Shown: positions 1,144 through 8,247 of the stretch, in pieces
Position numbering within the stretch: the first letter of the stretch is position 1
How the letters are laid out: each line of letters opens with the position of its first letter
Origin: a virus
Lineage: Duplodnaviria > Heunggongvirae > Uroviricota > Caudoviricetes
Strand: one strand, 5' to 3'
Virus record (IMG/VR): IMGVR_UViG_2534681834_000008
DNA: 8,247 nucleotides
The notes under the pieces: model-generated
The model's input: the letters and a program-made list of their open reading frames with translations, nothing else
The model's database searches: none
What the model was told of the DNA's origin: nothing
Made by a program: the position numbers and the translations under genes

Positions 1144-1321
1144 CAGCGATTATCCGTTGGAGTTTTGGGTTTGCGTTTATTGGGAGTTGCGGTTCTGCAA
1201 GCGTTCCTACAAAACGGGAATTTCGGTCAATCATCCAGTAGCGACCAACTTTTATAGCGGGTGGGGCCATCATTTTCCCTTGCGCGTATTTTTTCAGAAC
1301 TCGCTCACTTGGTGCTAAGTC
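1133..1321 (-). pseudogene. xis: Excisionase (lambda Xis family), 3' fragment separated from its 5' end by IS10
   Basis: Hand translation of the minus strand from 1321 down to stop TAG at 1135..1133 gives DLAPSERVLKKYAQGKMMAPPAIKVGRYWMIDRNSRFVGTLAEPQLPINANPKLQRIIADGC. It joins in frame, through the 9-bp target duplication, to the 5' fragment at 2651..2707. The stop overlaps the int start by 11 nt. Confidence 0.8.
1313..1321. repeat. IS10 target-site duplication, left copy (TGCTAAGTC)
   Basis: Nine bases immediately left of the IS10 outside end are identical to the nine bases immediately right of the inside end (2651..2659). 9 bp is the known IS10/Tn10 duplication length, and the core matches 5 of 6 positions of the recalled hotspot consensus NGCTNAGCN. 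Confidence 0.92.
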
Positions 1322-1344
1322 CTGATGAATCCCCTAATGATTTT
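1322..1344. repeat. IS10 outside-end terminal inverted repeat
   Basis: CTGATGAATCCCCTAATGATTTT; by hand alignment about 17 of 23 positions match the reverse complement of the inside end. Confidence 0.8.
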
Positions 1345-1367
1345 TATCAAAATCATTAAGTTAAGGT

Positions 1368-1436
1368 AGATACACATCTTGTCATATGATCAAATGGTTT
1401 CGCCAAAAATCAATAATCAGACAACAAAATGTGCGA
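1368..1436 (-). ncRNA. IS10 antisense RNA-OUT (approximate coordinates), complementary to the 5' end of the transposase mRNA
   Basis: Placed from recalled IS10 biology: pOUT starts near IS10 bp 115 and transcribes about 69 nt towards the outside end, overlapping RNA-IN and the transposase start codon at 1429. Not derived independently from the sequence; the ends are approximate. Confidence 0.45.
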
Positions 1437-2637
1437 ACTCGATATTTTACACGACTCTCTTTACCAATTCTGCCCCGAATTACACTTAAAACGACTCAAC
1501 AGCTTAACGTTGGCTTGCCACGCCTTACTTGACTGTAAAACTCTCACTCTTACCGAACTTGGCCGTAACCTGCCAACCAAAGCGAGAACAAAACATAACA
1601 TCAAACGAATCGACCGATTGTTAGGTAATCGTCACCTCCACAAAGAGCGACTCGCTGTATACCGTTGGCATGCTAGCTTTATCTGTTCGGGCAATACGAT
1701 GCCCATTGTACTTGTTGACTGGTCTGATATCCGTGAGCAAAAACGGCTTATGGTATTGCGAGCTTCAGTCGCACTACACGGTCGTTCTGTTACTCTTTAT
1801 GAGAAAGCGTTCCCGCTTTCAGAGCAATGTTCAAAGAAAGCTCATGACCAATTTCTAGCCGACCTTGCGAGCATTCTACCGAGTAACACCACACCGCTCA
1901 TTGTCAGTGATGCTGGCTTTAAAGTGCCATGGTATAAATCCGTTGAGAAGCTGGGTTGGTACTGGTTAAGTCGAGTAAGAGGAAAAGTACAATATGCAGA
2001 CCTAGGAGCGGAAAACTGGAAACCTATCAGCAACTTACATGATATGTCATCTAGTCACTCAAAGACTTTAGGCTATAAGAGGCTGACTAAAAGCAATCCA
2101 ATCTCATGCCAAATTCTATTGTATAAATCTCGCTCTAAAGGCCGAAAAAATCAGCGCTCGACACGGACTCATTGTCACCACCCGTCACCTAAAATCTACT
2201 CAGCGTCGGCAAAGGAGCCATGGATTCTAGCAACTAACTTACCTGTTGAAATTCGAACACCCAAACAACTTGTTAATATCTATTCGAAGCGAATGCAGAT
2301 TGAAGAAACCTTCCGAGACTTGAAAAGTCCTGCCTACGGACTAGGCCTACGCCATAGCCGAACGAGCAGCTCAGAGCGTTTTGATATCATGCTGCTAATC
2401 GCCCTGATGCTTCAACTAACATGTTGGCTTGCGGGCGTTCATGCTCAGAAACAAGGTTGGGACAAGCACTTCCAGGCTAACACAGTCAGAAATCGAAACG
2501 TACTCTCAACAGTTCGCTTAGGCATGGAAGTTTTGCGGCATTCTGGCTACACAATAACAAGGGAAGACTCACTCGTGGCTGCAACCCTGCTTACTCAAAA
2601 TCTATTCACACATGGTTACGTTTTGGGGAAATTATGA
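1429..2637 (+). CDS. tnp: IS10 transposase (402 aa, apparently intact)
   Basis: ORF from the track beginning MCELDILHDSLYQFCPELHLKRLNSLTLACHALLDCKTLTLTELGRNLPTKARTKHNIKRIDRLLGNRHL, which I recognise as the IS10/Tn10 transposase. ATG at 1429 is 107 bp inside the outside end, the canonical position. Confidence 0.95.
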   Translation: MCELDILHDSLYQFCPELHLKRLNSLTLACHALLDCKTLTLTELGRNLPTKARTKHNIKRIDRLLGNRHLHKERLAVYRWHASFICSGNTMPIVLVDWSDIREQKRLMVLRASVALHGRSVTLYEKAFPLSEQCSKKAHDQFLADLASILPSNTTPLIVSDAGFKVPWYKSVEKLGWYWLSRVRGKVQYADLGAENWKPISNLHDMSSSHSKTLGYKRLTKSNPISCQILLYKSRSKGRKNQRSTRTHCHHPSPKIYSASAKEPWILATNLPVEIRTPKQLVNIYSKRMQIEETFRDLKSPAYGLGLRHSRTSSSERFDIMLLIALMLQLTCWLAGVHAQKQGWDKHFQANTVRNRNVLSTVRLGMEVLRHSGYTITREDSLVAATLLTQNLFTHGYVLGKL

Positions 2638-2650
2638 GGGGATCTCTCAG
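2628..2650. repeat. IS10 inside-end terminal inverted repeat (contains a GATC Dam site)
   Basis: Plus-strand GAAATTATGAGGGGATCTCTCAG, reverse complement CTGAGAGATCCCCTCATAATTTC; GATC at 2641..2644. Confidence 0.8.
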
Positions 2651-2659
2651 TGCTAAGTC
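2651..2659. repeat. IS10 target-site duplication, right copy (TGCTAAGTC)
   Basis: Identical to 1313..1321 and immediately abuts the IS10 inside end. Confidence 0.92.
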
Positions 2660-2707
2660 CCCAAATTCTTCTTTAGCCCAGTCCTGTAAAGTGATTAGTC
2701 GAGACAT
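2651..2707 (-). pseudogene. xis: Excisionase (lambda Xis family), 5' fragment with start codon and ribosome-binding site
   Basis: Minus-strand ATG at 2707..2705, preceded by AGAGGAGGACAA (GGAGG about 6 nt upstream). Translation MSRLITLQDWAKEEFGDLA; LTLQDW parallels the lambda Xis N-terminus LTLQEW (recalled). In the present sequence the frame runs into IS10 and would end after about 14 foreign codons. Reconstructed pre-insertion protein is 78 aa. Confidence 0.8.
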
Positions 2708-2846
2708 TTGTCCTCCTCTTAGCTGCTGAGGGAGTTTGTGACCGATATATCTGACATGATATTAAGCTCATGGCAGGTACATCTCTTGACTGGTCATAGA
2801 GATAAATTTAATGCTGAGAAATGCAGTATTGAATTTATCAATTTTT

Positions 2847-3086
2847 CTATTTTCTGCGTATGGCACGTAACTTCTTAATGTGTTCTGCCGTTTCGATCTC
2901 TTCTGCTATCCGATCTGCATCAGCTTTATTCACAGGTTCAAAGTCATGATTAAAGCGGAACATGCTGGCGATACATGTTCTGCCTTTTCGGATGTAGTGA
3001 ACTTTGTTGTGGGTAGAACGCAGGATTTTGCAGGGAGTGCCGTGGTGGTCGACGTACCAGGTGTTAGGAAAAATGATTCTGAACAT
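2847..3086 (-). CDS. Hypothetical small protein (79 aa) in the prophage b-region
   Basis: ORF from the track; minus-strand ATG at 3086 preceded by GAGGTG with about 5 nt spacing. Scattered His/Cys residues (HHGTPC ... H ... C) might bind metal. Sits just upstream of xis, where lambda carries its ea genes. Function not recognised. Confidence 0.6.
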   Translation of the reverse strand: MFRIIFPNTWYVDHHGTPCKILRSTHNKVHYIRKGRTCIASMFRFNHDFEPVNKADADRIAEEIETAEHIKKLRAIRRK

Positions 3087-3133
3087 TTTTACACCTCAGT
3101 TGGACGATGTTGAAATTTGCTGCTTTGAGGCCA

Positions 3134-3352
3134 TCACAATCCCCATTGTTTGTTCTTAAGTTCGATCTCCTCCTGGCAACTTGCACAAGTCCGACAACCC
3201 TGAACGACCAGGCGTCTTCGCTCATCTATCGGATCGCCACACTCACAACAATGAGTGGCAGATACAGTCTGGTAGTTCAGACGACGCATTTTTATTGCTG
3301 TATTGCGCTGTAATTCTTCGATTTCTGATGCTGAATCAATGATGTCTGCCAT
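3134..3352 (-). CDS. TraR/DksA-family C4 zinc-finger protein (72 aa)
   Basis: ORF from the track with the paired Cys motif CCEC ...(about 17 aa)... CRTCASC, at the small size typical of TraR-like proteins. Lambda orf73 in the same region is a recalled TraR homolog. Confidence 0.78.
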   Translation of the reverse strand: MADIIDSASEIEELQRNTAIKMRRLNYQTVSATHCCECGDPIDERRRLVVQGCRTCASCQEEIELKNKQWGL

Positions 3353-3401
3353 CTTCCATTAATCCCTGAATTGTTGGTTAATACGCTTGAGGGTGAATGC
3401 G

Positions 3402-3428
3402 AATAATAAAAAAGGAGCCTGTAGCTCC
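3402..3428 (-). terminator. Candidate intrinsic terminator for leftward transcription
   Basis: Inverted repeat GGAGC (3414..3418) / GCTCC (3424..3428) with a 5-nt loop. On the minus-strand RNA it is followed by UUUUUU AUUAUU (plus-strand A-run 3408..3413). Lies 22 nt downstream of the stop of the 3451..3732 ORF. The stem is short (5 bp), so this is a weak call. Confidence 0.4.
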
Positions 3429-3450
3429 CTGATGATTTTGCTTTTCATGT

Positions 3451-3732
3451 TCACCGTTCCTTAAAGACGCCGTTTAACATGCCGATTGCCAGACTTAAGT
3501 GAGTCGGTGTGAATCCCATCAGCGTTACCGTTTCGCGGTGCTTCTTCAGTACGCTACGGCAAATGTCATCGACGTTTTTATCCGGAAACTGCTGTCTGGC
3601 TTTTTTGATTTCAGAATTAGCCTGACGGGCAATACTGCGAAGGGCGTTTTCTTGCTGAGGTGTCATTGAACAAGTCCCATGTCGGCAAGCATAAGCACAC
3701 AGAATATGAAGCCCGCTGCCAGAAAAATGCAT
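3451..3732 (-). CDS. Hypothetical small protein (93 aa from the first ATG; 71 aa if translation starts at the internal ATG at 3666)
   Basis: ORF from the track. Neither candidate start has a strong Shine-Dalgarno sequence. The reading frame is stop-free and lies in the leftward operon between the methyltransferase and the TraR-like gene. Function not recognised. Confidence 0.55.
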   Translation of the reverse strand: MHFSGSGLHILCAYACRHGTCSMTPQQENALRSIARQANSEIKKARQQFPDKNVDDICRSVLKKHRETVTLMGFTPTHLSLAIGMLNGVFKER

Positions 3733-3742
3733 TCAGTGGTTG

Positions 3743-4300
3743 TCATGCAGCCTCCCGACGGGCAAGAATCCTTGAGCCGAACGCCATCAACTCTCCACGA
3801 TCAACGGTCGTAAAGTGGCAGTGTGTACGGGGGTATGGGTGCCAGATAATGAGCATCGAGCCTTTATTATTTCCACTGACGGGTTTCTCAGTGAGTGGGT
3901 TAATAAATGCCAGTCGTCCTGCCGTGATGAATCTGACCTCACTGGCGGTTTGTATCGCTTCATGAAACCATCCGACAGATGTGTCAGCAGGCAATAACAT
4001 TACACATCCCACACTACTGAATTTGTTTTCAGTGGCTGCCTTTTTCACAAAAGGGGAAATATTGCTGTATGGTGGATTCAACCAGACATAACCAGAGGCA
4101 TATCCCATTGCTTCAGGCCATGAAGTGGTTAATGTGTTCTGCTCCTGTGAGATAAAAAGCCGACATAGTCGGTTTTTTTCGCTGGCGGCAGCATCAAGTT
4201 GAAAAACGAACTCTGCATTAAGCGCAGCAAAAATCTCTGGTGGTGTGCGCCAGCTGTCGCGATGTTCGGCAGGAGTATTGCTTCCGGTGAAATCAGTCAT
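3743..4300 (-). CDS. Phage-type DNA N6-adenine methyltransferase (185 aa), apparently orphan
   Basis: ORF from the track with the catalytic NPPY motif in the context YVWLNPPYSNISPF. Its size and layout fit the small phage Dam family rather than host Dam. The start ATG at 4300..4298 overlaps the stop of the upstream small ORF (ATGACTGA). No adjacent restriction endonuclease candidate is visible. Confidence 0.85.
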   Translation of the reverse strand: MTDFTGSNTPAEHRDSWRTPPEIFAALNAEFVFQLDAAASEKNRLCRLFISQEQNTLTTSWPEAMGYASGYVWLNPPYSNISPFVKKAATENKFSSVGCVMLLPADTSVGWFHEAIQTASEVRFITAGRLAFINPLTEKPVSGNNKGSMLIIWHPYPRTHCHFTTVDRGELMAFGSRILARREAA

Positions 4301-4460
4301 ACAGCCCCCGTTTATTATTTATCTCCTCAGCCAGCCGCTGTGCTTTCAGGGGATTTCGGATAACAGAAAGGCCGGGAAATATCCAGCCTCGCTTTGTAAC
4401 GGAGTAGACGAAAGTGATCGTGCCTACCCGGATATTATCGTGAGGATGCTTCATCGCCAT
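4293..4460 (-). CDS. Small ORF (55 aa) between exo and the methyltransferase; not in the supplied ORF track
   Basis: Hand translation of the minus strand gives [55 protein letters not shown], then stop TGA at 4295..4293. The second ATG (4454..4452) overlaps the exo stop as ATGA, and the ORF end overlaps the methyltransferase start, so the three genes look translationally coupled. The position immediately after exo matches lambda orf60a, which I recall as similar, but I could not verify this. Confidence 0.5.
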
Positions 4461-5131
4461 TGCTCCCCAAATACAAAACCAATTTCAGCCAGTGCCTCGT
4501 CCATTTTTTCGATGAACTCCGGCACCATCTCGTCAAAACTCGCCATGTACTTTTCATCCCGCTCAACCACGACATAATGCAGGCCTTCACGCTTCATACG
4601 CGGGTCATAGTTGGCAAAGTACCAGGCATCTTTTCGCGTCACCCACATGCTGTACTGCACCTGGGCCATGTAAGCCGACTTTATGGCCTCGAAACCACCG
4701 AGCCGGAACTTCATGAAATCCCGGGAGGTAAACGGGCATTTCAGCTCAAGGCCATTGCCGTCACTGCATAAACCATCGGGAGAGCAGGCGGTGCGCATAC
4801 TTTCGTCGCGATAGATGATCGGGGATTCAATAACATTTACGCCGGAAGTGAACTCAAACAGGGTTCTGGCGTCGTTCTCGTACTGTTTTCCCCAGGCCAG
4901 CGCTTTAGCGTTAACTTCCAGAGCCACACCGGTGCAAACCTCAGCCAGCAGGGTGTGGAAGTAGGACATTTTCATGTCAGGCCACTTCTTTCCTGATCGG
5001 GGCTTTGCTATCACGTTGTGAACTTCTGAAGCGGTGATGACGCCGAGCCGTAATTTGTGCCATGCATCATCCCCCTGTTCGACAGCTCTCACGTCGATCC
5101 CGGTACGCTGCAGGATAATGTCCGGTGTCAT
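4451..5131 (-). CDS. exo: Lambda-type 5'-3' exonuclease (Red alpha), 226 aa
   Basis: ORF from the track beginning [65 protein letters not shown] and ending GFVFGEQWR, recognised as lambda Exo with only a few substitutions (from memory). The start ATG overlaps the bet stop as ATGA. Confidence 0.96.
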
Positions 5132-5913
5132 GCTGCCACCTTCTGCTCAGTGGCTTTCTGTTTCAGGAATCCAAGAGCTTTCACTGCTTCGGCCTGTGTC
5201 AGTTCTGACGATGCGCGAATGTCGCGGCGAAATATCTGGGAACAGAGCGGCAATAAGTCGTCATCCCATGTTTTATCCAGGGCGATCAGCAGAGTGTTAA
5301 TCTCCTGCATGGTTTCATCGTTAACCGGAGTGATGTCGCGTTCTGGCTGACGTTCTGCAGTGTATGCAGTATTTTCGACAATGCGCTCGGCTTCATCCTT
5401 GTCATAGATACCAGCAAATCCGAAGGCCAGACGGGCACACTGAATCATGGCTTTATGCCGTAACATCCGTTTGGGATGCGACTGCCACGGCCCCGTGATT
5501 TCTCTGCCTTCGCGGGTTTTGAATGGTTCGCGGCGGCATTCATCCATCCATTCGGTAACGCAGATCGGATGATTACGGTCCTTGCGGTAAATCCGGCATG
5601 TACAGGATTCATTGTCCTGCTCAAAGTCCATGCCATCAAACTGCTGGTTTTCATTGATGATGCGGGACCAGCCATCAACGCCCACCACCGGAACAATGCC
5701 GTTCTGCTTATCAGGGAAGGCGTAAATTTCTTTCGTCCACGGATTAAGGCCGTACTGGTTGGCGACGATCAACAATGCGATGAACTGCGCATCGCTGGCA
5801 TCACCTTTAAATGCCGTCTGGCGAAGAGTGGTGATCAGTTCCTGTGGGTCGACAGAATCCATGCCGACACGTTCAGCCAGCTTCCCTGCCAGCGTTGCGA
5901 GTGCTGTACTCAT
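5128..5913 (-). CDS. bet: Single-strand annealing recombinase (Red beta), 261 aa
   Basis: ORF from the track beginning [66 protein letters not shown], recognised as lambda Bet (from memory). The 4-bp overlap with exo is the classic lambda arrangement. Confidence 0.96.
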
Positions 5914-5918
5914 CCGTT

Positions 5919-6215
5919 TTATACCTCTGAATCAATATCAAACTGGTGGTGAGCAATGGTTTCAACCATGTACCGGATGTGTTCTGCCATGCGCTCCTGA
6001 AACTCAACATCGTCATCAAACGCACGGGTAATGGCTTTTTTGCTGGCCCCGCAGCGTTGCAAATGATCGATACAGAGTGATTCAAACAGGTGCTGTGGAA
6101 GACCTTTTTCCATGTCGTCTGCCAGTTCTGCCTCTTTCTCTTCACGGGCGATCTGCTGGTAGTGACGTGCCCAGCTCTGAGCCTCAAGACGATCCTGAAT
6201 GTAATAAGCGTTCAT
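5919..6215 (-). CDS. gam: Host RecBCD nuclease inhibitor Gam, short form (98 aa)
   Basis: ORF from the track beginning [60 protein letters not shown] and ending [10 protein letters not shown], recognised as lambda GamS. AGGAG lies about 7 nt upstream of the ATG. An in-frame TAA at 6272..6270 is 19 codons upstream, so no longer N-terminally extended form can be made here. Confidence 0.94.
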
Positions 6216-6291
6216 GGCTGAACTCCTGAAAATGGCTGTGAAAATATCGCCCGCGAAATGCCAGGCTGATTAGGAAAACAGGAAAGAGGGG

Positions 6292-6702
6292 TTAGTGATT
6301 CAGGCCGTTACCGCGTCCGTCGAGAAAAACTTCTACGAGCAAATCACGGGTATAAGTGCGCTCGATGCCGCGATGCAGATAAAGCCGTCCGCGTAAATTA
6401 GCTGATGCAGTCCAGGTACCATCTTTGTGTTTGACCAGCATTCCTGGCATGACCGCACCGCGATTAACGGTCTGCGTTCCGTAATGTTGATGAACCATAA
6501 AAACTCCTGCCCGTAAGCTGGGCTGCTGAACATATAAAGACTTCTGCGCGTATTCAGGCGGTGGATGGCCGCCGGTTGTCATAACTAAGCCGCCTCGTTG
6601 AAGCGACTGAGGTATGAAGTGTTGAGTTGATTTCAGCTGGTCACACCGACGTTCACGCGTCCGCTTCACCCCTCGCACTCCCCGGAGCCTGCTGAAATTC
6701 AA
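6292..6702 (-). CDS. Hypothetical protein at the position lambda uses for kil (136 aa from the first ATG; about 96 aa if started at the internal ATG at 6582)
   Basis: ORF from the track. The C-terminal part (MPGMLVKHKDGTWTASANLRGRLYLHRGIERTYTRDLLVEVFLDGRGNGLNH) looks protein-like. The N-terminal 40 codons of the longest form are Arg-rich and low complexity, so the true start is uncertain. I could not match it to lambda Kil from memory. Confidence 0.5.
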   Translation of the reverse strand: MNFSRLRGVRGVKRTRERRCDQLKSTQHFIPQSLQRGGLVMTTGGHPPPEYAQKSLYVQQPSLRAGVFMVHQHYGTQTVNRGAVMPGMLVKHKDGTWTASANLRGRLYLHRGIERTYTRDLLVEVFLDGRGNGLNH

Positions 6703-6944: not shown

Positions 6945-6982
6945 AAAAGAAAACCCGGCACGGTGGCCGGGACGTTTTATTT
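6945..6982 (-). terminator. Intrinsic terminator (bidirectional in appearance) directly downstream of the DUF4411-like gene
   Basis: GC-rich hairpin CCCGGC (6954..6959) / GCCGGG (6966..6971) with a 6-nt loop. On the minus-strand RNA it is followed by UUUUCUUUU (plus-strand AAAAGAAAA at 6945..6953). On the plus strand it is followed by ACGTTTTATTT (6972..6982). The hairpin begins 5 nt after the stop codon at 6977..6979. Confidence 0.65.
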
Positions 6983-7489
6983 CAAAGAAAAATTATGACT
7001 AGCGTATCTTGGAAGAAATTCATATAGTGTTAATGTCTTAACGCCGTGAGAAGCAGCAGCATCCGGGATCATTATTCTTTTTTTAGGTTTGCCACCGGAT
7101 GGTTTCTCATGGGTAATAATAGTATATCCATGTGTCATCGCATGGGCTATTAAAAAAGCATCTGCTTTTTCATGGCTTGCAAAATCAAACTTTGCCTTTT
7201 CGGTAACATCTAATTTAGTTGACCAATTTATTAACTTTGCATAATTTTCTATTGAACTATGCTCATCTTCGAAGAATGATGATGGTAACTCTTCTTTAAT
7301 CCATTTACACAATGGATCATCTTTTGCACATAGTTCTTTTTTTACAGCATTAATGCTATAAATCAGACCATTAATGTGTAAAGCGAGAAGAAAATCCCAA
7401 AATATTTTGCAATAATTGAAGTTATATGCAAAGTTTTTTGCCTCTATGAAGACATTACTATCAATTAAGAATTTTCCATTATGAATCAT
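6977..7489 (-). CDS. DUF4411-like protein, predicted PIN-like nuclease fold (170 aa)
   Basis: ORF from the track. N-terminal FLIDSNVFIEA resembles the first acidic motif of PIN-like domains, followed by FWDFL, G-IYSI-V-KEL, ADAFLIAHA and a C-terminal IMIPDAAASHGV, which together match my recollection of the DUF4411 family pattern. The start ATG at 7489..7487 overlaps the stop of the upstream peptidase gene as ATGA. The gene is visibly AT-rich compared with the Red genes. Confidence 0.7.
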   Translation of the reverse strand: MIHNGKFLIDSNVFIEAKNFAYNFNYCKIFWDFLLALHINGLIYSINAVKKELCAKDDPLCKWIKEELPSSFFEDEHSSIENYAKLINWSTKLDVTEKAKFDFASHEKADAFLIAHAMTHGYTIITHEKPSGGKPKKRIMIPDAAASHGVKTLTLYEFLPRYASHNFSLK

Positions 7490-8247
7490 AGAGATTCTCG
7501 TTTTTTATAAAATTCAACAACTGTATCTGCTTTTACATTTAGCAGTACGCCTGCTTCCCTTAATGGTAATTGTTGAGACATTGCTTTGGAAATTATTATA
7601 TTCGTAAGTTTTGGACTGTTACGAACAGGTAATGTGTTAAAGAAAGAACCACCATTGGATTCTTTTTTGGGCTTATTGTAAGCTTGATCTTTAATTATCT
7701 CCAAAGTGTTTCTTTCTATCAAATCTAATTGTAACGCTTTGATTGCACAAGCGAAATCACTAACCTTAAATAACTTAGAAACCTCTTTTACTCGATAATA
7801 ATTATTATCGCTGGATGCATTAAGCCAGAAAGATTTGAAGAGATTATCAGGCATTAAGATTTCAGCAGCAACTTTATTACAAAAAGATTCTATGTTTTTT
7901 TCTGTGTCCCACCCAGAGACTCCATCGACTCCAAGCCAAAGATGAGCCACCTCATGAAATAATGTAAATACCTGCGCAGATAACGCGTCCGAGCTATTTA
8001 CAAAAATGATCGGAGCAACGCTATCAGATATACAGAAACCACGAAACTCTCGCGTGTCAAGTTTTCTTTTATTATTATTACCCACAACACCATTCTTGAA
8101 AACTAATACGCCAGTGTCTTCTATTAGTTTTGCCACTTTAGAAAAATAGCTCTCAAAAGTGACATTTTTTATCTCTTTTTGTATATCAAAATGTATTGTG
8201 TTTGCTATGTCTGTAGCAACAACCTTATAATTTAATTTTCTATTAAA
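7486..8247 (-). CDS. ImmA/IrrE-family HExxH metallopeptidase domain protein, 5'-partial (gene continues past the window end)
   Basis: Contains FTLFHEVAHLWLG, the HExxH zinc-binding signature in the context typical of ImmA/IrrE proteins. The track ORF (7486..8136) starts at a GTG, but hand translation of the minus strand from 8247 shows 37 more in-frame codons with no stop (FNRKLNYKVVATDIANTIHFDIQKEIKNVTFESYFSK...). That is unlikely by chance in such AT-rich DNA, so the true start, and probably an N-terminal domain, lies outside the window. Confidence 0.75.
   Translation of the reverse strand, partial: FNRKLNYKVVATDIANTIHFDIQKEIKNVTFESYFSKVAKLIEDTGVLVFKNGVVGNNNKRKLDTREFRGFCISDSVAPIIFVNSSDALSAQVFTLFHEVAHLWLGVDGVSGWDTEKNIESFCNKVAAEILMPDNLFKSFWLNASSDNNYYRVKEVSKLFKVSDFACAIKALQLDLIERNTLEIIKDQAYNKPKKESNGGSFFNTLPVRNSPKLTNIIISKAMSQQLPLREAGVLLNVKADTVVEFYKKRESL

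Follow-up and report, generated by a model that had tools for sequence, protein, structure and literature searches.

The closest described relatives of the gene studied here encode small N6-adenine methyltransferases of phages. M.EcoVT2Dam, the product of orf32 of the Stx2 phage VT2-Sakai and identical in 933W-type phages, is described as "known to target GATC" in a passage that cites Radlinska and Bujnicki 2001 (PMC6602927). M.EcoT1Dam, gp20 of the virulent phage T1, is a GATC modifier, and M.Btr190III, which shares 35% identity with it, also modifies GATC, though with considerable activity at other sites (PMC4996451). The enzyme of phage HP1 (orf13) is listed among the Dam-like phage proteins (PMC7556043). 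Two other orphan m6A methylases from prophages, M.EcoGII (PMC5778455) and Hia5 (PMC3299994), are non-specific and are believed to be made only once the prophage is induced.

The window, i.e. the whole stretch of 8,247 nucleotides that was analysed, carries on its minus strand an open reading frame of 558 bp with an ATG start, hereafter dam, which encodes 185 aa. In a Pfam search, the protein matched PF05869 "DNA N-6-adenine-methyltransferase (Dam)" with 190.5 bits (E 2.3e-56; profile positions 1-168 of 169; cut-off 28.1 bits), and in NCBIfam it matched the equivalog TIGR01712 "phage N-6-adenine-methyltransferase" with 165.6 bits (positions 3-165 of 165; cut-off 97.05 bits). The match to the family, including the WLNPPYS motif, is therefore far above chance. 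It was also matched by phrog_111 "DNA methyltransferase" (E 1.5e-77), its best PADLOC match was the "orphan methyltransferase" (oMTase) model (8e-32), and nearly all of ~730 homologues in a large protein collection are named phage N-6-adenine-methyltransferase. The original prediction, made from the NPPY motif in this reading frame, had proposed a phage Dam-family enzyme and a profile search as a check; the motif lies where it was placed, and all four profile resources agree on the family. The ORF is a genuine, if unremarkable, prophage member of the phage Dam family. Three plus-strand ORFs antisense to it (3660..3965, 3815..3997 and 3981..4091) oppose a well-supported gene, are absent from the PGAP record and were rejected as spurious. 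The features of the window are listed in Table 1.

Table 1. Positions of the features of the window referred to in the text.
Feature	Position	Strand	Evidence or remark
IS10, complete, 1329 bp	1322..2650		flanking 9-bp target duplication TGCTAAGTC (1313..2659 in all)
IS10 RNA-OUT	1367..1436	-	Rfam match, 97 bits
IS10 transposase, 402 aa	1429..2637	+	
Terminator-like hairpin + T-run just after the orf61-like gene	3412..3430	-	consensus scan, pattern match only
orf61-like gene, 93 aa from ATG 3732 (10 nt past dam stop)	3451..3732	-	phrog_303 over residues 1-93; PGAP 71 aa at 3451..3666
dam-like CDS (185-aa phage N-6-adenine DNA methyltransferase)	3743..4300	-	ORF listing, PF05869, TIGR01712, phrog_111, PADLOC oMTase; PGAP coordinates identical in strain CV839-06
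Non-lambda cassette (dam)	3747..4297	-	replaces lambda 31009..31193 = orf63
Catalytic motif IV, WLNPPYS (residues 73-79)	4064..4084	-	invariant residues in family alignment
Putative AdoMet-binding motif I-like segment, LDAAAS (residues 35-40), end of first beta strand	4181..4198	-	L35, D36, A39 invariant
ATGACTGA junction, dam start overlapping orf60a stop	4293..4300	-	read from sequence; translational-coupling type
orf60a homologue (DUF1317), 53 aa from PGAP start; alternative ATG 4460	4293..4454	-	PF07026 5e-33
GGGGG Shine-Dalgarno-like run, 4 nt upstream of dam ATG	4305..4309	-	sequence context
exo	4451..5131	-	ORF listing, PGAP name
bet	5128..5913	-	ORF listing, PGAP name
gam	5919..6215	-	ORF listing, PGAP name
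DUF4411	6977..7489	-	first part of low-GC (0.33) two-gene module 6977..8247
ImmA/IrrE metallopeptidase	7486 to beyond window end	-	379 aa in CV839-06

The dam product resembles M.EcoVT2Dam in its PF05869/TIGR01712 assignment, in full-length sequence (47% identity), in size class (175 vs 185 aa), in the NPPYS motif and in being an orphan of an E. coli lambdoid prophage. However, M.EcoVT2Dam is encoded in the nin region, right after ninB in the rightward operon, and more than half of the residues differ. M.EcoT1Dam belongs to the same family and shares 45% identity in the core, but it is 237 aa long, has an N-terminal extension of ~40 aa as well as an insertion of 14 aa, and comes from a virulent phage with a different genomic context. 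HP1 Dam (173 aa, 39% identity), also of this family, ends an early operon of a temperate phage, yet this is a P2-like phage of Haemophilus, in which it is unlinked to recombination genes. The alpha-class enzymes E. coli Dam, T4 Dam and DpnM, in contrast, show no detectable sequence homology to the dam product and carry DPPY and an inserted target-recognition domain. The dam product falls outside the alpha-class Dam family (PF02086), as PF05869 was its sole Pfam match and it is a single domain with NPPY; no PDB Dam chain matched it in sequence. M.EcoGII (beta-class, 349 aa) and Hia5 (Dam-related alpha-class) were rejected as relatives, since both are DPPY enzymes of other families.

In an alignment with the VT2, T1 and HP1 Dams and also among 35 close homologues, W73, N75, P76, P77, Y78 and S79 of the catalytic motif were invariant, and NPPY (residues 75-78) conforms to the (N/D)PP(Y/F/W) pattern of motif IV. 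A confident AlphaFold2 model built on 35 homologues (pLDDT 84, pTM 0.83) revealed one compact alpha/beta domain with a Class I (Rossmann-like) SAM-methyltransferase fold of the amino-methyltransferase type. WLNPPYS directly follows strand 71-74 in this model, and strand 33-37 is present at the LDAAAS segment, which we take as a putative motif I. The nearest solved structures to the model are N6-adenine methyltransferases, the closest being the eukaryotic mRNA cap m6Am methyltransferase CAPAM/PCIF1. A sequence search of the PDB returned no homologue of the dam product (a single chance match at E 0.28) and no solved structure for PF05869, so recognition residues could not be mapped.

The minus-strand gene order is kil, gam, bet, exo, orf60a, dam, orf61-like, TraR/DksA-like, DUF4222, xis (interrupted by IS10) and int, and the remaining genes of the window are DUF4411 and ImmA/IrrE. 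Within 3.5 kb on either side of dam all neighbours were identified, with no restriction enzyme among them, and neither the window nor the full prophage region as annotated yielded a restriction endonuclease partner. The lack of a partner endonuclease had been claimed for the window; as there is no such enzyme nearby, dam is an orphan (solitary) methyltransferase.

Around the dam start the minus strand reads ...GGGGGCTGT-ATGACTGA..., where the dam ATG (4300..4298) and the orf60a TGA (4295..4293) share an eight-base overlap. The orf60a homologue, which shares 94% identity with its lambda counterpart over 50 aa, in turn overlaps the exo stop, either by ATGA with the PGAP start at 4454 or by 10 nt with the ATG at 4460. 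Both overlaps had been pointed out, as had the tie of dam to exo-bet-gam that they create. The arrangement is that of the lambda leftward early operon and its exo-xis region, with dam on the strand of gam-bet-exo, overlapping boundaries, lambda-like flanks and no intervening promoter or terminator. Since the start of dam overlaps the stop of orf60a, which overlaps the stop of exo, dam belongs to the gam-bet-exo leftward early operon. A promoter scan detected no minus-strand promoter-like site in 2650..6400, with promoter counts overall at chance level, and gave no evidence for an independent dam promoter. The first good minus-strand terminator-like hairpin downstream of dam (3430..3412) is a possible end of the dam sub-operon unless antiterminated. 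Terminator-like matches inside coding regions (4390..4368, 4172..4160 and 4227..4213) were treated as chance. Rfam and tRNA scans gave no match in the dam region, the only hit being the IS10 RNA-OUT. The lambda leftward early operon is repressed in the lysogen; by analogy, dam should depend on the leftward early promoter, stay silent in the lysogen and come on early once the prophage is induced or a cell is infected.

The window was compared with lambda 27700..33300 using blastn. Window 3157..3746 corresponds to lambda 30418..31008 (96.6% identity) and window 4298..6298 to lambda 31194..33193 (97.2% identity). The segment in between is occupied by dam in the window and by orf63, annotated at 31005..31196, in lambda. 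The gene is thus a gene-for-gene replacement of orf63 in its place between orf60a and orf61, and the recombination breakpoints coincide with its start and stop codons. What had been described as an insertion among early-left accessory genes can now be put more sharply as an exact swap, and it provides a clean textbook example of lambdoid mosaicism. Lambda orf63 (DUF1382) has the same slot in the exo-xis region and the same overlapping boundaries, but encodes an unrelated 63-aa protein that is not a methyltransferase. Downstream of the cassette, the orf61-like gene matched lambda orf61 only over residues 33-56 of the latter. Given the 96.6% DNA identity of this segment, lambda orf61 may be a frame-shifted or truncated form of a longer gene.

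The 558 bp of dam are 100% identical in Escherichia phage PhiR30_1 and in lambda-like prophages that several E. coli strains carry beside icd, and the gene has the same arrangement there. The copy in strain CV839-06 is annotated by PGAP as "phage N-6-adenine-methyltransferase" (WP_000129285.1). Among complete E. coli genomes, 312 of 5426 (~5%) carry dam, always on the chromosome, and 241 of these copies are at least 99% identical; the copies among the matches listed are annotated as phage N-6-adenine-methyltransferase. The gene is already catalogued, its family is known and its anatomy is as expected, and the finding matters little beyond correct annotation.

Homologues with 66-74% identity occupy the same early-left slot, where a recombination module precedes them and int follows. 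The upstream module is RecT-Gp157 or Erf in Klebsiella prophages, YqaJ-RecT with DUF1317 in an Atlantibacter prophage, Gam-RecT-YqaJ in a Pluralibacter prophage and GamL-RecT-exonuclease in Enterobacter phage CobraSix. The clade of the window dam is found just downstream of five different recombinase modules: lambda Exo/Bet, GamL-RecT-exonuclease, RecT-Gp157, Erf and YqaJ-RecT. Genes of more distant relatives were noted in other positions. In 933W/VT2-type Stx phages and Erwinia phage 49 (L005 2046..3016; L017 1893..2962; L014 3542..4546), such a gene directly follows ninB/orf (recombination mediator) in the nin region, with a start-stop overlap of 4 nt between the two genes in the Stx phages, and in Klebsiella phage VLCpiS13e one is located between terminase and portal. 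With the exo-xis (Exo/Bet, RecT, Erf) and ninB placements together, adjacency of Dam-family genes to recombination genes is recurrent.

A 5'-truncated dam pseudogene was observed in the DLP12 prophage of E. coli BL21(DE3) (locus L006, 4003..4371), 98.7% identical over nt 188-558. It lies in the context dam-orf61-traR-DUF4222-xis-intD and abuts a ren fragment. This pseudogene is the scar of a deletion by which the exo-xis and replication regions became joined.

Based on its family, motif, fold and setting, we conclude with good confidence that the dam product is a small, single-domain, AdoMet-dependent DNA N6-adenine methyltransferase, an orphan encoded by a mosaic cassette in the orf63 slot of a lambda-like prophage that sits beside icd, presumably expressed early and most likely methylating GATC on phage DNA. 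The original prediction had rightly left the target specificity open, and homology now favours GATC. The VT2, T1 and HP1 Dams share only 30-35% identity with one another and the window protein is closer to each of them, which places it inside their diversity. In view of this homology to the VT2 and T1 GATC methylases, GATC is the likely target. The window contains 27 GATC sites versus 32 +/- 5 expected, and as they are neither depleted nor enriched, composition gives no hint of specificity. Our literature search found no experiment on the dam product or on any homologue more than 47% identical to it. For a family with neither a solved structure nor defined recognition residues, sequence alone does not decide the target.

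An active m6A DNA methyltransferase whose target is not strictly GATC, but another short motif or a relaxed set of sites that would give broad anti-restriction protection, seems unlikely to us, though it is the main rival. The dam product and the characterised GATC enzymes share only 39-47% identity, the 185-aa single domain has no separate target-recognition domain, and the prophage orphans M.EcoGII and Hia5 are non-specific, albeit members of other families. Within the family, M.Btr190III methylates many related sequences in addition to GATC (PMC4996451), and strict GATC specificity would therefore not be guaranteed for the dam product either. Nevertheless, all characterised family members with a motif reported in the literature we found target GATC, and the window protein lies within the sequence diversity of these enzymes.

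Amino-methyltransferases flip out their target adenine and use NPPY as the catalytic loop. From its motif and fold, we infer that the dam product, with AdoMet as methyl donor, acts in the same way. Translationally coupled to orf60a and exo and transcribed with gam-bet-exo, dam would be expressed early in lytic growth, alongside the Red functions. Its product would then methylate the adenine of GATC on fast-replicating phage DNA and outpace the host Dam. Full GATC methylation could make this DNA resistant to restriction enzymes which cut GATC but are sensitive to m6A, could let it behave like host DNA even where Dam is limiting or absent, and could permit growth in Dam-poor hosts. A GATC methylase looks superfluous when the E. 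coli host is dam+, and the selective benefit of dam is for this reason hard to see. In CobraSix, gp41 (L015 2633..4546), in the exo-xis slot, consists of an N-terminal C5-cytosine methyltransferase (PF00145) and a C-terminal Dam domain that is ~73% identical to the window protein. The same fusion was observed in P0050, P0060, P0068, P0069, P0072 and P0087. Several Enterobacter prophages carry such a fusion. Such fusions of Dam with a C5-cytosine methyltransferase would fit, and point to, a role in protective methylation.

The recurrent adjacency to recombination genes raises another idea, namely that dam is kept beside them because it cooperates with them through evasion of MutH-directed mismatch repair. 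We consider this quite improbable. Extra Dam, if made along with Exo/Bet, would cut the time for which GATC sites stay hemimethylated and thereby blunt MutH-directed repair; if true, Red-mediated recombination between diverged (mosaic) phage sequences would increase. This would be the natural counterpart of an engineered situation in recombineering, where co-expression of Dam with Beta has a mismatch-repair-evading effect (PMC4770203). The adjacency may merely reflect that lambdoid genomes have few accessory slots.

It is also very improbable that the dam product is decayed, i.e. catalytically dead, or acts on RNA. Such a view could draw on CAPAM/PCIF1, an mRNA-modifying enzyme, as the closest solved structure and on the truncated copy in BL21(DE3), but the ORF is unbroken, with 99-100% conservation in 241 genomes, its product keeps every family-invariant residue, and members of the family were shown to be DNA GATC methylases. 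Hardly credible at all is the proposal that dam supplies the methylase of a restriction-modification or other defence system with its partner elsewhere in the prophage, e.g. the DUF4411/ImmA pair 2.7 kb away: the low GC (0.33) of these genes (6977..>8247) does suggest separate acquisition and the ImmA part matches the capP/RmrA models of PADLOC, but the whole Red operon and kil separate them from dam, related prophages have dam without them (PhiR30_1 carries different genes there, and the matches of H9-H16 end at ~6971), the Klebsiella, Atlantibacter and Pluralibacter loci have no nuclease partner save for HNH homing-type genes in one locus, and PADLOC groups the dam product with orphan methyltransferases.

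The presence of IS10 near dam, which the original prediction had pointed out in connection with Dam regulation, was confirmed, and the element has GATC sites at 1388 and 2641. Both sites are methylated anyway if the E. coli host is dam+. Since dam should in addition be repressed in the lysogen, no effect on IS10 is expected from the orphan GATC methylase we propose; by this reasoning such an effect would be unlikely and speculative. IS10 splits the excisionase gene xis, which is intact in strain CV839-06, and as a result the prophage in the window can probably not excise normally. An identical type of IS10 junction occurs, with 97.5% identity, in one RefSeq genome (NZ_CP053785.1), and another, CH4794, has ISVsa5 at the same spot, which suggests that this site is an insertion hot spot.

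At the other end of the window, the DUF4411 and ImmA/IrrE genes overlap by 4 nt and form a module between kil and the repressor gene. With the peptidase matching the PADLOC models capP and RmrA, the module is a possible defence or toxin-antitoxin-like moron. It is missing from PhiR30_1, and other strains have a DGQHR-domain gene in its place.
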